Virus record (IMG/VR): IMGVR_UViG_3300022752_000024
Span: 1 to 64,000 of that record
DNA from: a virus
Reading direction: 5' to 3' (one strand)
DNA: 64,000 nt
Positions within the stretch are counted from its first letter, which is position 1; every line of letters begins with the position of its first letter. The position numbers were made by a program, and so were the translations under genes. Under the pieces are notes generated by a model. It searched no databases, was not told the origin of the DNA, and saw only the letters and a list, made by a program, of their open reading frames with translations. Below, piece after piece: positions 3,552 to 19,086 of this stretch.

Positions 3552-4096
3552 TCTTTATAGAGCATCCACGAATCATTTCTAAGAAGTTTTAATTTTTCTT
3601 CCGGTATATTCTTTTCTAATAAAAACTGTTTCAACTCTGATGATACACTAGGCAGTGAATAATCATGTCCTGCAAATATTCCACCAACTTTGACTTTATC
3701 GTAATAGTTTCTTAAATCATTCCTAACATATTCTTGGCTATGATTACCATCAATAAAAATAAAATCAAGAAAACCATCTTCAATGGTTGATGCAGCATCA
3801 TCTGAAGTCATTATTCGTATCTCTGCTCGATCTCCTGCGCCAATAAGTTCAAGATTTCGAAAAGTAACTTCTTTAAAATTGTCAGTCATTCCTTGACTGA
3901 CGGAACCAGCATAATCATTATATTGAATATATGGATCAATGCCAATTAGTTTTTGAATATTATCACAGATTTCTAACATGTGACAATAATTTTCACCATG
4001 ACAAACACCAATTTCACAACCTACAATATTATCACCCAACTGTTTAATATAATCATTTAATTCATTTGAAGGCAAACTTTCTTTATTGAATAGCAT
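3548..4096 (-). CDS. class I SAM-dependent methyltransferase (Methyltransf_24-like, sugar O-methyltransferase type)
   Basis: CEIGV..G, GIDPY, DFIFIDGNH and GGIFAGHDY motifs. Confidence 0.85.
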   Translation of the reverse strand: MLFNKESLPSNELNDYIKQLGDNIVGCEIGVCHGENYCHMLEICDNIQKLIGIDPYIQYNDYAGSVSQGMTDNFKEVTFRNLELIGAGDRAEIRIMTSDDAASTIEDGFLDFIFIDGNHSQEYVRNDLRNYYDKVKVGGIFAGHDYSLPSVSSELKQFLLEKNIPEEKLKLLRNDSWMLYKE

Positions 4097-4101
4097 TTGA
4101 T

Positions 4102-5181
4102 TTAACCTTTATATTCGTTTAATGTATTTACAACGTGTTTTAAATCTTCATTGCTTAACCACCATCCATTTGGAATGCAAATGTGTGTCTTATCAAAACT
4201 TGTAACTCCAGGCAAGTCCTTTTCTTTAAATTTCAATGTGCAATCGTACATATCATTTCTGTAATGAACTGGACTTGATGCTATTCCTTTAGCTTCAAGA
4301 TAATTGGTAAATTGATGTTTTTGATTGTTCTTAACATGCATACTGAATAACCAGAAAGAGCAAGTTTCATCCCATGCAGGCATGATTAAATTATCATTCT
4401 TCACATTATCGATAATATATTTTGAATTATTTCTATGCTTCAAAACAGAATCATTTGCTGGCTCAAGATTACACAAACCAATAGTAGCATTAATATCATT
4501 CATATGATACTTATAACCAGCTTGAGTGATATTTTGTGTGCATCGGAAAGATTGTCCTTTTGTTCTATCAAGACCAAACCAACGAAGAATTCTTGCCTCA
4601 TTTTCTTTTTCTACTGTCGGACAAATAAGAACACCACCATCGCCGCTAGTTAAGAGTTTAATTGCTTGTAGACTATAACAAACATAATCTCCACGTTCTA
4701 CCGGTTCTTTTAAGAAAGTATCCCACGTATGTGCAGCATCTTCAATAACAGGAACACCAAAGCTTTTTAATTGTTGGTAATCACAAAATCTTCCTGCCCA
4801 ATTAACAGCAATAATTGCTTTTGTTTTCTTTGTGATTAATTTTTCTACTGATTTAGGATCTATCAATCCAGTAATTGGATCAATATCTGCCCAACGAATT
4901 CTAGCTCCTCGATGAATTGCGCCAATCTGTGATGCAAAACAAGTTTGCGGAGTAGAAATCACTTCATCGCCAGAACCAACATCACACAGGTGTAAGGCAA
5001 GATCGATAGCGGTAGTACATGAGTTGAGGGTTACTGGTCTTGTTTTTGTTTTTAGTTGTTGATGTAGTGCATTTTCAAATAACTCAACTTTGGGACCTTG
5101 ACCAATGAATCCTGACTGAAGAACACTACCAAGTTCTTCATTTACTTCAGGAGACATTCTTACTTTAAATAACGGAATCAT
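4102..5181 (-). CDS. DegT/DnrJ/EryC1/StrS PLP-dependent sugar aminotransferase
   Basis: NSCTTAIDLAL, VIEDAAH and SLQAIKLLTSGDGG (PLP lysine) motifs. Confidence 0.95.
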   Translation of the reverse strand: MIPLFKVRMSPEVNEELGSVLQSGFIGQGPKVELFENALHQQLKTKTRPVTLNSCTTAIDLALHLCDVGSGDEVISTPQTCFASQIGAIHRGARIRWADIDPITGLIDPKSVEKLITKKTKAIIAVNWAGRFCDYQQLKSFGVPVIEDAAHTWDTFLKEPVERGDYVCYSLQAIKLLTSGDGGVLICPTVEKENEARILRWFGLDRTKGQSFRCTQNITQAGYKYHMNDINATIGLCNLEPANDSVLKHRNNSKYIIDNVKNDNLIMPAWDETCSFWLFSMHVKNNQKHQFTNYLEAKGIASSPVHYRNDMYDCTLKFKEKDLPGVTSFDKTHICIPNGWWLSNEDLKHVVNTLNEYKG

Positions 5182-5644
5182 AATTATACTCCATGGTTAT
5201 AAGTTTACCATCATCATTTATAAGTTTAAAGCCTAGTTTAGTATAAACAGAAAATGCGACAGAATTTGTTTTTAGTACTTCTAATTTTATTGGAAGATTG
5301 TAGTTTTTGGAATTTTGAATTAGAAAATGAAATAGAAATTGTCCATGACCTTTTCCTCTTTCAGACTCAGTTAATCCTCCACTCAATAGAACATGATCAT
5401 CTTCTATTCTTATGTATCCGTAACCAATAGCATCAGCTACGACACCATGATAAATTTTATGTAGTAAAAATAATTTATTTTTATCTTTGTTAACGTTAAA
5501 ATACCAATTTATTTGTTGCTCTTGTGAAATTTCTTCTGTGCTTCTAGTCATGAAATTCCTACATTCATTTCTTATTAACCTCAGATTTTCTACATCTTTG
5601 TCTGAAATGACTGGAACAAAAACTAAGTCACCTTCGTGCACCAT
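5165..5644 (-). CDS. GNAT N-acetyltransferase (PseH-like sugar acetyltransferase)
   Basis: ERGKGHG acetyl-CoA motif and LEVLKTNSVAFSVYTKLGF; overlaps the aminotransferase gene. Confidence 0.85.
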   Translation of the reverse strand: MVHEGDLVFVPVISDKDVENLRLIRNECRNFMTRSTEEISQEQQINWYFNVNKDKNKLFLLHKIYHGVVADAIGYGYIRIEDDHVLLSGGLTESERGKGHGQFLFHFLIQNSKNYNLPIKLEVLKTNSVAFSVYTKLGFKLINDDGKLITMEYNYDSVI

Positions 5645-6486: not shown

Positions 6487-7181
6487 GGAAAATCTCCTCT
6501 ACATTTTTCATTCATTATTTTGTTTCCATTCTCAAAAAATTCTTTAGTAACCGAACCTTCGTTTCCAGCTAATCGATAATTTACAGAATATTGTTTTGTG
6601 CAATCCCACTTTTGAAAATTTTGTGCAATTACTGAAAGAAACACTCTATCTTGACCCCAACCGCCATGCCATACTGATGCTAATTTTATCATAATTTCTT
6701 TGGGAACGCAATAGCTATTTGTATCAATATGATTTGCGCCATGATAAGTTTGCCATCTACCTAGACTTTCACAGTCATCATTGCAAATGAAGTTGCCGTG
6801 TTTATCACATATTTTTCTTAACGAATAGCACCAATCTAAATTATTATTTTTTATTGTTTCGACACACGATAAAACATGTTGTTTTTCGAACCAACAATCT
6901 TGATCCAAAAAAAGAACATAATCTTCGTTGATTAGGTGAGAGAATGCTGCGTAGATTCTATGACCATAGAATCCATTAGCTCCCACGTTTTCAGGAAGGT
7001 AACATACTTTAAAATTTGGATTTCCTAGATAGTTGTCGGCAATAGCTTTTACTTTGCCTCTGTATTGATCACCGTCGCATACCAAGTAGCACTTAGTCTG
7101 ATATGATTGATTTAACACACTCTCAATAGCAATACGAACTTCGGGTGCACCCGTAGTAGGTACAATAACAACAGCACTCAT
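6471..7181 (-). CDS. glycosyltransferase family 2
   Basis: IVPTTG..AIESVLNQSY, LVCDG and FLDQD motifs. Confidence 0.9.
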   Translation of the reverse strand: MSAVVIVPTTGAPEVRIAIESVLNQSYQTKCYLVCDGDQYRGKVKAIADNYLGNPNFKVCYLPENVGANGFYGHRIYAAFSHLINEDYVLFLDQDCWFEKQHVLSCVETIKNNNLDWCYSLRKICDKHGNFICNDDCESLGRWQTYHGANHIDTNSYCVPKEIMIKLASVWHGGWGQDRVFLSVIAQNFQKWDCTKQYSVNYRLAGNEGSVTKEFFENGNKIMNEKCRGDFPWQKI

Positions 7182-7726: not shown

Positions 7727-8445
7727 TTAATAGACCTAGCTTTCAATGCTTTTAAATAGTCTTTATCGTCCAAATCTGCATCTGATTTCGTGAGAGTACC
7801 TTTTACTGCTTGGATAGCTGTCGTAAAACGATAATTATATATTGGTGTACTTCCGCCACGTTTTAATCTTATACGTAATTTTAATTGCAGATCAAACTCT
7901 GGAACTCCTAATTTTGCCTTATCTCTTCCCATGTAATATAATCCATAACCACCTATTTGTATATAATATGTGTCTTTTGAATTATAATATTTTGCTACAC
8001 TATCATTTGGAATGTTTATAAATTTATCTTTAAAATTTTTATAATCATAATCAACATCTGTTTTTTTAAATTGACTAGGTGAAACTATGAATTTTCTTGG
8101 TGGATTTGGACCCCACTCTCTTGTCACAATTTTTGTCACTCCAATAGCAGTTAAAAACTCTCTCATTTGTTCTGCTGAAGCTGTTTTAGCTCCACCAAGA
8201 ATCCAACCTTTTCCTTTTTTATTTAGAGTTCCTAAATCATAATCTAAAGAACCTTGCCCAAAATCTACATTTAAGTCCAATTTCACTTCAACTTTGTAAT
8301 CTTGACCTTGATATGTGATTTGAGCATCTGGAGCATTTGAATCTGATCCTGCAGGTTGAAATGATTTTTTCTGTACTCCTGCTTTTTTCAGATTATCATT
8401 TAAGGTTCTCTCGTAAAGAATACCTTTATTTTCTGATGCTGCCAT
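7723..8445 (-). CDS. PD-(D/E)XK restriction-endonuclease-like nuclease
   Basis: GILYE..PDAQITYQGQDYKVEVK fits E..PD..ExK; GGAGG SD; late promoter directly upstream. Confidence 0.6.
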   Translation of the reverse strand: MAASENKGILYERTLNDNLKKAGVQKKSFQPAGSDSNAPDAQITYQGQDYKVEVKLDLNVDFGQGSLDYDLGTLNKKGKGWILGGAKTASAEQMREFLTAIGVTKIVTREWGPNPPRKFIVSPSQFKKTDVDYDYKNFKDKFINIPNDSVAKYYNSKDTYYIQIGGYGLYYMGRDKAKLGVPEFDLQLKLRIRLKRGGSTPIYNYRFTTAIQAVKGTLTKSDADLDDKDYLKALKARSIK

Positions 8446-10153: not shown

Positions 10154-10699
10154 TTATGCTCCATTCGTTGTTTCTATGTTAAATGTTTCTTCCACAATGT
10201 CATTAGTAATAATGTCTCCATTAGAAACACTATATTTTCTTTCGACAAATTCACGGAAGGTCTTTTGTTTCAAAATAGATGTCCAAAAGTCTTTAGTATC
10301 AGTTTCTTTCAGTCTATATTTTTTATCTTCATACACACCATCTTCATCTCTCTTAGAATACCAACCATTACTAGGTTTAATTACATGACCACTTTCGAGT
10401 GCAATATCCAGTAAACCAGACCACTTACTAATGCCACCATCAAAGGATACACTAACAGGAATTTTTGATTTCTCTTTAACATATCGACTCTTTTCAACAT
10501 TAATAATAAAATTATATCCAACAACTTCAGTTCCTTCTTTTTCTTGTTGACGTCCAAGAATGAATATATTATCTGCTGAGTAATAACTGCCCGTGTTATG
10601 TGTAACTATACCGTTTTCTAGAACATAATGTTCAGCATCTTTAACTGAAATATCATATACCTTCTTTTTACCAACAGGCGTTACTGATTTAATTTTCAT
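10154..10699 (-). CDS. uvsX: UvsX C-terminal half preceded by split-intein C-fragment (35 aa)
   Basis: ATG at 10699 with AAGGA SD; MKIKSVTPVGKKKVYDISVKDAEHYVLENGIVTHN|TGSYYSADNIFILGRQQ..VEKSRYVKEK. Confidence 0.93.
   Translation of the reverse strand: MKIKSVTPVGKKKVYDISVKDAEHYVLENGIVTHNTGSYYSADNIFILGRQQEKEGTEVVGYNFIINVEKSRYVKEKSKIPVSVSFDGGISKWSGLLDIALESGHVIKPSNGWYSKRDEDGVYEDKKYRLKETDTKDFWTSILKQKTFREFVERKYSVSNGDIITNDIVEETFNIETTNGA
10595..10699 (-). mobile_element. split intein, Int-C fragment
   Basis: Block F VYDISV, terminal His-Asn, Thr at +1. Confidence 0.92.
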
Positions 10700-18150: not shown

Positions 18151-18528
18151 TTATGCTATCAATCGTTTCTTTTCTGCTTCAGTTACTACTTCTTCAAATA
18201 GTGTTTGATTAGCTAAAACTTTTGCAGCATCTTCTGCTACATCAGGATTGTAATCTTTAAAGTTACCACCATGTCCAATTTTAATATGACATTCTTTATC
18301 CATACAAAGTGTAATCAGATTGTTTAGGTCTAATTCATGCTCAGGAAAAAGATGAAACGGCTTCTTGTGATGTACATTTAAATTTTTAACAGAACCACAT
18401 GCAGCACAAGAAGGTTCCATTTTTAAATGTAGTTTTTGTACATGTGGCCATTTTGGACTTCTTTCCATTCCATGTCCAACATGAGCATCACGATTTTCTG
18501 TTTTTGCTAAATTTACTTTCTTAACCAT
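18151..18528 (-). CDS. small HNH endonuclease
   Basis: CAACG..NVHHKKPF..DLNNLITLC..CHIKIGH; AGGAGG SD before MVKKV. Confidence 0.85.
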   Translation of the reverse strand: MVKKVNLAKTENRDAHVGHGMERSPKWPHVQKLHLKMEPSCAACGSVKNLNVHHKKPFHLFPEHELDLNNLITLCMDKECHIKIGHGGNFKDYNPDVAEDAAKVLANQTLFEEVVTEAEKKRLIA

Positions 18529-18561
18529 AATACCTCCTCTAAAGAAAGTATATATGAGATA

Positions 18562-18653
18562 TGGCGGTAAGAGTTGGATTCGAACCAACGGCACTATTTA
18601 ATTAGTACGACGGTTTAGCAAACCGCTGCCTTAAACCACTCAGCCATCCTACC
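18562..18653 (-). tRNA. tRNA-Ser(GCT)
   Basis: GCGGT-TTGCTAA-ACCGT anticodon arm, long variable arm, GGTTCGAATCC, G discriminator, CCA. Confidence 0.92.
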
Positions 18654-18845
18654 ATTAATTGTGTTATCATGTTATACCTAGGATTCACCGCCTAGGGTTT
18701 GCATTTTGTAGGACTGCACTTATTATTCCTATCGTCATAGGTTTTTCGTCAGTCACACCTTATAGACTTGAAGTATCCGGACATCAAGTCATTTTGAGGA
18801 GCACTATCCAGCGAGAACTGGAATTTTCCATAATAACACAATTAA
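18654..18845 (-). ncRNA. unidentified multi-hairpin structured RNA in the tRNA cluster
   Basis: 18-bp closing helix (18654-18671 with 18829-18846, one G.U) enclosing four hairpins; no credible ORF. Confidence 0.6.
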
Positions 18846-18920
18846 TGGTACACCGTAGGAGAATCGAACTCCTCTTACCGCCGTGAAAGGGCAGTGTCCT
18901 AACCGATAGACGAACGGTGC
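18846..18920 (-). tRNA. tRNA-Glu(TTC)
   Basis: GCACCGT/ACGGTGT acceptor, CTGCC-CTTTCAC-GGCGG arm, GTTCGATTC, CCA. Confidence 0.93.
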
Positions 18921-18937
18921 TTAACTACTGAGAACAT

Positions 18938-18966
18938 ATTATATAACAACTAGGAAGATTTGTCAA
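18938..18966 (-). promoter_or_regulatory. consensus sigma70 promoter for tRNA-Glu, the structured RNA and tRNA-Ser
   Basis: Perfect TTGACA-17nt-TATAAT. Confidence 0.85.
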
Positions 18967-19011
18967 GGGTGTTGTATATAAACAACATGTTGCTATTTTT
19001 GCACTTCAATA

Positions 19012-19086
19012 TGGCCTCGGTGTACGGATTCGAACCGCAACTGACGGTTTTGGAGACCGCGGTGCTGCCAATTACACCACACCGAG
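19012..19086 (-). tRNA. tRNA-Trp(CCA)
   Basis: CTCGGTG/CACCGAG acceptor, GCGGT-CTCCAAA-ACCGT arm, GGTTCGAATCC, G discriminator, CCA. Confidence 0.92.

Follow-up and report, generated by a model that had tools for sequence, protein, structure and literature searches.

The question raised by this locus is what fills the gap between two neighbouring genes of a phage tRNA cluster. In the 64,000-nt stretch of DNA analysed here (the window), the minus strand carries a tRNA-Glu(UUC) gene at 18846-18920 and a tRNA-Ser(GCU) gene at 18562-18653, both predicted by ARAGORN and matched by the Rfam tRNA model (52.4 and 54.7 bits, respectively), and the 192 nt between them (18654-18845) make up a spacer that would follow tRNA-Glu and precede tRNA-Ser in a transcript. 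Each of the two genes encodes its own CCA, that of tRNA-Glu ending at 18846, and ARAGORN and Rfam concur on a total of six minus-strand tRNAs in the window. A first-pass annotation, made from the letters of the DNA alone, had read the spacer as a multi-branched noncoding RNA of the minus strand, lying downstream of a perfect sigma70 promoter and released by tRNA processing. The promoter is as described, since TTGACA-17-TATAAT, running from 18966 to 18938 on the minus strand upstream of tRNA-Glu, agrees with the sigma70 consensus at 12/12 positions of the promoter scan.

The setting is that of a freshwater phage. The window is part of a 142.9-kb IMG/VR virus record, 86% complete, and the phage occurs in public runs from lake and freshwater metagenomes. 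The terminase shares 52-54% identity with its counterparts in the Pelagibacter myophage Mosig and T4-like cyanophages, and by this match and by the gene content of the region the phage is of T4 type. On the upstream side of the locus lie genes for AdoMet decarboxylase and dCMP deaminase, while past tRNA-Ser come those for an HNH endonuclease (18151-18531, immediately downstream of tRNA-Ser; Pfam HNH, 23.2 bits), a Cpn10-like protein and a metallophosphatase. The HNH gene in this position recalls the homing endonuclease gene segB within the T4 tRNA cluster.

The minimum free energy (MFE) fold of the minus strand places a structured element at 18650-18850, with a core at 18654-18846. It is closed by a long helix, P1, whose 5' strand in the RNA sense is 18829-18850 and whose 3' strand is 18650-18671; the two arms form an inverted repeat of 22 nt each, 95% complementary. 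The closing helix had been annotated as 18 bp long, and it is present with 4 bp more, reaching into both tRNAs: the outer 4 nt of the 5' strand belong also to the UACC(A) with which tRNA-Glu ends, and they pair with the GGUA that begins tRNA-Ser. The four hairpins listed beforehand also appear in the MFE fold at the expected coordinates. P2 (18807-18822) pairs UCCAGU with GCUGGA and is found in the MFE and consensus folds alike. Arm P3 (18755-18802) holds the GACUUGA hairpin (18765-18790) and a fifth helix that had been missed, in which 18797-18802 pairs with 18755-18760 and encloses that hairpin. Arm P4 (18712-18754) consists of an outer GACUG/CAGUC helix, a large, conserved, A-rich internal loop and an inner hairpin, CCUAU-GACG-AUAGG, at 18728-18741, and P5 (18677-18696) pairs CCUAGG with CCUAGG around the loop CGGUGAAU. 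The overall architecture is thus one of five helices meeting in a five-way junction with A-rich joining segments, over some 195-200 nt. Inspection of the fold found no complementary unpaired segments that could form a pseudoknot, and the linkers are invariant, so that covariation cannot appear there.

This fold is far more stable than expected by chance, with an MFE of -58.8 kcal/mol as compared to -35.8 +/- 4.3 kcal/mol for 200 dinucleotide shuffles (z = -5.35), none of which did as well. The plus strand comes close to this stability (z = -5.17), and as such, the strand cannot be chosen by energy alone; it is the G.U counts in homologues that choose it (see below).

Pattern scans of IMG/VR and JGI metagenomes, filtered with blastn, yielded 11 full copies besides the one in the window and three partial, truncated copies, at identities of 77-97%. 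All lie on freshwater phage contigs, within tRNA clusters and on the tRNA strand. A covariance model of the family (R1), which gives the window element 250.8 bits, finds exactly one copy per phage, including in the 142.9-kb window record and in the complete 214-kb genome behind contig L014. The flanking tRNAs vary (Glu|Ser, Lys|Gln, Asp..Tyr, Asn..Tyr, Glu..Asn, Glu..Tyr and Glu|Cys), and the neighbourhood is still broadly syntenic, following the order Cys-Glu-(Lys)-element-(Gln/Tyr/Asn/Asp). When searched with blastn against 50,697 records of cultured phages, the region matched with its flanking tRNAs only and not with the spacer, and no R1 copy is present in Pelagibacter phage Mosig, Synechococcus phage RN05-S, cyanophage P-TIM40 or T4. 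Several scan patterns returned loci that had to be discarded: a short inverted-repeat pattern hit 60 loci of which only 6 were true, the P5 hairpin word added 5 false ones, located in GC-rich coding DNA, and the 5'-arm word gave 19 false loci without tRNAs. A scan with a pattern from the 5' half added no new members.

Covariation among the 12 full copies was assessed in two alignments. In a MAFFT alignment 97.4% of the cells in paired columns are paired and 18/54 base pairs have changed on both sides, a count reached by none of 500 shuffles (5.9 +/- 1.7) and well above slid controls (2-7). In an alignment fitted to the covariance model, which leans toward the structure, these figures rise to 98.8% and 23/54 (shuffles 6.4 +/- 1.8, 0/500 reaching it; slid controls 2-5). 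The family is small and shallow, with an effective sequence number in R1 of 1.06, and RNAalifold returned from it the same consensus fold as that predicted from the single sequence. P1 has compensating changes in 11/21 pairs of the model-fitted alignment, a large share of which rests on the single divergent copy L096; in this most divergent member the P1 sequence is wholly different (CCAUAUAUGAGCACUAU...) with pairing kept. The outermost P1 pairs covary among lineages as ACCA/UGGU, AAAU/GUUU and AAUC/GAUU. Compensating changes were also found in P3 (2/5 pairs of the outer helix and 4/6 of the inner hairpin), in P4 (2/5 pairs of each) and in P5 (2/6 pairs). P2 is 100% paired and invariant in all 12 copies, which leaves it without covariation support and hence uninformative.

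The homologues also settle the strand. The minus strand had been favoured because of a lone imperfection in the closing helix, which reads as a wobble pair in the RNA of that strand only; this U.G, at pair 15 of the 18-bp core helix, is kept in 10/12 copies, L096 being mismatched there. Across all homologues, G.U cells number 55 on the tRNA strand versus 2 on its complement, and this asymmetry indicates that the selected structure is a minus-strand RNA and not a DNA cruciform. The structure is therefore under selection on the tRNA strand, and the reading of the spacer as a phage noncoding RNA of the minus strand is supported, its co-transcription and release by tRNA processing being suggested by position.

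Sequence conservation goes beyond what pairing alone shows. Relative to the loci L014 and L091, the element is 95% identical, as compared to 76% for coding DNA (the metallophosphatase gene) and 78-92% for tRNAs, while terminase identity between the window phage and the L014 phage is only 56% at the amino acid level. The corresponding values are 97%, 69% and 78-96% for L097, and 85%, 70-78% and 75-81% for L066. The element is hence the best-conserved segment of its region, ahead of both the tRNAs and the protein genes next to it. None of the 12 copies varies in the unpaired A-rich junctions or in the 8-nt P5 loop. Such identity may reflect very strong purifying selection acting on the entire sequence, or else a recent exchange among divergent phages, two explanations that 12 sequences cannot separate.

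We then compared the element to known RNA families. In agreement with the first-pass annotation, which could name no family, a search of 801 nt against Rfam 15 gave no match overlapping 18654-18846 at E <= 10, and in the window as a whole nothing but the six tRNAs reaches gathering score. A PVT1_5 match of 13.7 bits in a 211-nt search is on the wrong strand and was dismissed as spurious. Nevertheless, a few words in the sequence could be read as belonging to a reduced relative of a known catalytic or tRNA-linked RNA, such as a miniature RNase P RNA, a Y RNA or tRNA mimic, or a self-cleaving ribozyme: GGAAAAUUCC faintly echoes the CR-I word of RNase P RNA, the long terminal stem is like that of Y RNAs, GGCGGUGAAUCC faintly echoes a T arm, and CUGACGA fits the hammerhead word CUGANGA. 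We regard any such identity as very improbable, given that no Rfam family matches at E <= 10 even in the 211-nt search. For RNase P RNA, the continuous 22-bp closing helix leaves no 3' strand for the P4 pseudoknot, the UUCCAG of the CR-I-like word is taken up by local pairing in P2, and RF00010 and RF00011 are unmatched. For a Y RNA or YrlA, RF02553 and RF00019 give no match, and a TROVE/Ro60 gene is absent from the phage record (86% complete) by a search that was positive in controls. The P5 loop has 8 nt on a 6-bp stem, unlike the 7-nt loop of a tRNA T arm. The hammerhead-like word (RNA positions 95-101) becomes UUGCCGA in L063, the inner hairpin is not followed by GAAA, and Rfam again gives no match.

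Other roles were rejected as well. A sponge for a CsrA-type protein does not fit an RNA with only four GGA words, of which the one in the loop is gone in L008 and L063. A 30-aa minus-strand ORF (18749-18841) meets a UGA at codon 9 in most homologues (CAG UGA UCG), a 75-aa plus-strand ORF runs antisense into tRNA-Glu, and small ORFs are not conserved, which speaks against a coding function. Judged from its sequence, then, the element is a structured RNA gene that no catalogue lists and that a small clade of freshwater T4-like phages carries in single copy.

The closest known parallels are species 1 (rnaC, 139 nt) and species 2 (rnaD, 119 nt) of phage T4, to whose stable RNAs the spacer had been likened. 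As to place, the analogy stands: like the element, these are small structured RNAs of a T4-type tRNA cluster, carried on the tRNA strand, and they adjoin the homing endonuclease gene segB much as the element has an HNH gene for a neighbour. As to descent it does not, because the hits of R1 in T4, whether in the tRNA region (L099) or genome-wide, score only 5.7-14.5 bits and none is at rnaC or rnaD. The two T4 species also fold differently, are shorter than the element and lie at the end of their cluster whereas the element lies between two tRNAs, and rnaC has a tRNA-like T arm and an acceptor-like end in place of a 22-bp closing helix and five-way junction. The element would thus add a new, non-homologous example to a phenomenon known since T4, that of extra stable RNAs arising from phage tRNA clusters. 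To our knowledge, the roles of such RNAs in T4-type phages are still obscure after 50 years. The function of rnaC and rnaD in particular is reported as unknown (PMC3014915; PMC9697503).

How the RNA might be released is suggested by the way P1 is anchored on the tRNAs. The 3' end of P1 lies 0-7 nt from the next tRNA in 10/12 contexts, the two exceptions being L066, with no tRNA close behind, and L008, whose contig ends inside the downstream tRNA-Ser, and in four contexts the 5' end abuts or takes in the CCA of the preceding tRNA. RNase III binds the duplexes that flank 16S and 23S rRNA (PMC8708148). P1 is like these stalks, and like the early-RNA sites of phage T7, in that the flanks of a structured RNA pair over about two helical turns within a polycistronic precursor of stable RNAs. 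A duplex of about 20 bp or more drawn from the flanks is what such a stalk calls for, and P1 has 22 bp in the window and 21-25 bp in most homologues, L096 having 17 uninterrupted pairs followed by an internal mismatch. P1 differs from the rRNA stalks in enclosing about 150 nt that are not rRNA and in being anchored on tRNA ends, and its cleavage is a prediction. From this likeness of a roughly two-turn duplex around an embedded RNA to the RNase III target at 16S and 23S rRNA, we infer that P1 and related stems (see below) are processing stalks.

We consider it probable, though well short of certain, that the locus is a gene for a structured noncoding RNA of freshwater T4-like phages that is excised from a tRNA precursor, is stable and acts in trans. 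The position, strand, fold, covariation and conservation of the element are as observed above; the steps from transcription onward are our proposal. The strong, early-type promoter upstream of tRNA-Glu would drive a precursor running tRNA-Glu, element, tRNA-Ser, and the enzymes that mature the flanking tRNAs would, judging from position, cut the element out of it. RNase P, cutting at the 5' end of tRNA-Ser, would define where the element ends on its 3' side, its other end would be freed by 3'-end trimming at the tRNA-Glu CCA, and host RNase III probably cuts the closing helix as well. A point against the proposal is that genes for RNase III, Ro60 and RtcB are absent from the phage record (86% complete). 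The product would be a nuclease-resistant five-helix RNA whose invariant A-rich junctions and loops could form a specific tertiary surface, and during infection it may act in trans by binding a protein or another copy of the RNA.

A scan of the related loci for stems brought up another account of the same features. Many helices of 18-25 bp, of the form CCAUAUUGAA(A/G)CACA... / ...UGUGUUUCAAUAUGG, start at the CCA of a tRNA, in many cases reach as far as the next tRNA, and enclose interiors of 40-250 nt that are unrelated to one another. With so many such stems, a stem of the length of P1 between tRNAs would seem to be a general device in these phages, and P1 in the window takes in the ends of both its tRNAs. 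The element might accordingly be a module acting only in cis: P1, as an RNase III stalk, would keep the two tRNAs apart and aid folding of the precursor, and the interior would have no function in trans. We find this unlikely, as about 150 interior nt at 95% identity, next to genes at 76%, are not expected of a mere spacer, the loops and junctions are invariant, and four interior helices are maintained through compensating changes. P1 agrees in length and CCA anchoring with the constant-stem cassettes, whose stems are about 19-22 bp long, but its stem sequence differs (ACCAUUAAUUGUGUUAU), and whereas cassette interiors are exchangeable, the P1 sequence goes with the same interior in all copies. 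A stable, trans-acting RNA with a processing stalk remains the reading we prefer.

The cassettes merit description in their own right. Near-constant stems of 18-22 bp were found at L014:5900-5991, 6802-6901 and 8332-8436, at L091:1118-1196 and 2770-2856, at L097:5400-5566 and 4032-4322, and at L066:7628-7713; the arms at L097:4032-4322 are nested, and alternative pairings are possible there. L039:7736-7892 and L063:2451-2614 share a further cassette, about 160 nt long and with a stem of 20-23 bp, directly after tRNA-Glu; in L063 it is immediately upstream of the element. Three phages (L091:3395-3632, L014:8980-9217 and L039:7925-8170) also have a conserved non-coding block, about 215-240 nt long, that adjoins the element on its upstream side; a multi-helix fold is plausible for this block, but only two pairs covary among the three sequences, and Rfam has no match. 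In the window, CCATATTGAA, a word of the cassette 5' arm, occurs at 19005-19014 after tRNA-Trp, and since no partner arm lies within the window it may be the scar of a lost cassette. Together, the element and the cassettes suggest that freshwater T4-like phages make a repertoire of small RNAs by way of the tRNA maturation pathway.

The region of the locus itself is mosaic. In one contig of a public metagenome, 18558 is followed directly by 19009, the junction being a 7-nt repeat, GCCATAT, found after tRNA-Trp and after tRNA-Ser, meaning that a close relative lacks the block 18559-19008, with promoter, tRNA-Glu, element and tRNA-Ser all together. Another metagenome contig has 18650-18850 with a different downstream flank. 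A conserved small stem-loop (18970-18993, minus strand; TGTTGT..ACAACA, CAACATGTTG) abuts the -35 box, and the arrangement of ACAUGUUGU...ACAACA followed by TTGACA also precedes tRNA-Glu in L008, L066 and L063 (twice in L063). With the promoter, this stem-loop forms a unit (18938-18993) that looks like a PeSL-type regulatory cassette. PeSL (promoter-early stem-loop) cassettes drive modular shuffling in T4-type phages, where they flank small protein genes and serve as DNA recombination sites (Arbiol et al. 2010, PMC2839356). The likeness lies in a strong sigma70-like promoter and stem-loop placed before a unit that is present or absent among close relatives in a mosaic region. The cargo here differs, consisting of tRNAs along with a conserved RNA, and the two sequences brought together by the deletion are GCCATAT words that follow tRNA ends, not PeSLs.

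These observations raise the possibility that the element is a selfish or cassette-like mobile DNA module, bounded by its inverted repeats, spread between tRNA clusters by recombination and kept for its ability to move, not for its RNA. Different phages carry it between different tRNAs, homology ends sharply at the helix ends, a close relative is without the whole block 18559-19008, the promoter with its stem-loop resembles the PeSL cassettes of T4-type phages (PMC2839356), and an element identity of 95% beside a terminase identity of 56% could reflect transfer. However, we judge such an origin to be improbable. Each phage has a single copy, the copies found are confined to tRNA clusters and never have the opposite orientation, and no target-site duplications occur in the flanks. 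Without target-site duplication, multi-copy spread or freedom of orientation, the element is not a MITE despite its inverted ends, and in a neighbourhood that is broadly syntenic, local gain and loss of tRNAs accounts for most of the contexts. In addition, the G.U asymmetry and the covariation of the interior show that the RNA as such is under selection. Being mobile does not preclude being functional.

One further feature concerns what the RNA may do once released. The apical loop of P3 contains the self-complementary word UCCGGA (18776-18781, minus strand), and a self-complementary word occurs in the same position in each of the four lineages: UCCGGA in the window and eight other copies, GAUAUC in the L066 group, CCCGGG in L096 and UCGA/GAUC in L008 and L063. 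The step from UCCGGA to AUCGAA includes a symmetric change from C:G to U:A. The word is predicted to be unpaired in 11/12 copies, and the predicted loop-loop duplexes have energies of -4 to -11.5 kcal/mol. Shuffled versions of the loop region contain a palindrome of at least 6 nt in about 7-20% of cases, which makes the finding of three independent 6-nt palindromes at a single position suggestive and not conclusive. We tentatively propose that two copies of the RNA may join through a kissing loop in P3, giving a small self-assembling RNA particle with the dimer as the form active in infection, an idea with the odds against it that draws on the loop sequences. If it holds, the element would be a miniature counterpart of the RNA-only assemblies of ROOL, GOLLD and OLE, and the assembled form might act, for example, as a scaffold or as a decoy for a host nuclease or defence protein. 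ROOL and GOLLD are structured RNAs of unknown function that are often carried by phages and lie near tRNA genes, with which they are perhaps co-transcribed (PMC5737381), and they are reported to self-assemble (10.1101/2024.12.08.627333). The element is similar to them as a phage RNA near tRNAs, and the palindromic loop hints at a shared capacity for self-association. In contrast, GOLLD and ROOL exceed it three- to fourfold in size (581 nt on average for ROOL), and the element has no Rfam match. Its five-helix fold is well supported, its stalk-like helix has tRNA ends as anchors and it may carry a dimerisation loop; the element makes a convenient study case, as a transcript of about 200 nt can be made in vitro and its structure, processing and self-association tested directly.

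Two minor observations concern the phages that carry the element. A scan of genome contigs returned L098 as its sole match, a 523-nt contig in an Actinomycetota MAG on which a truncated element precedes two tRNAs and the beginning of a gene. The contig is almost certainly a misbinned phage fragment, and as a clue to the host it is a weak hint at best, too weak for naming one. The complete 214-kb phage behind L014 has tRNAs with the anticodons CUA and UUA, at 5204-5278 and 10349-10422, which would read UAG and UAA and are possibly suppressor tRNAs or a sign of stop-codon recoding.
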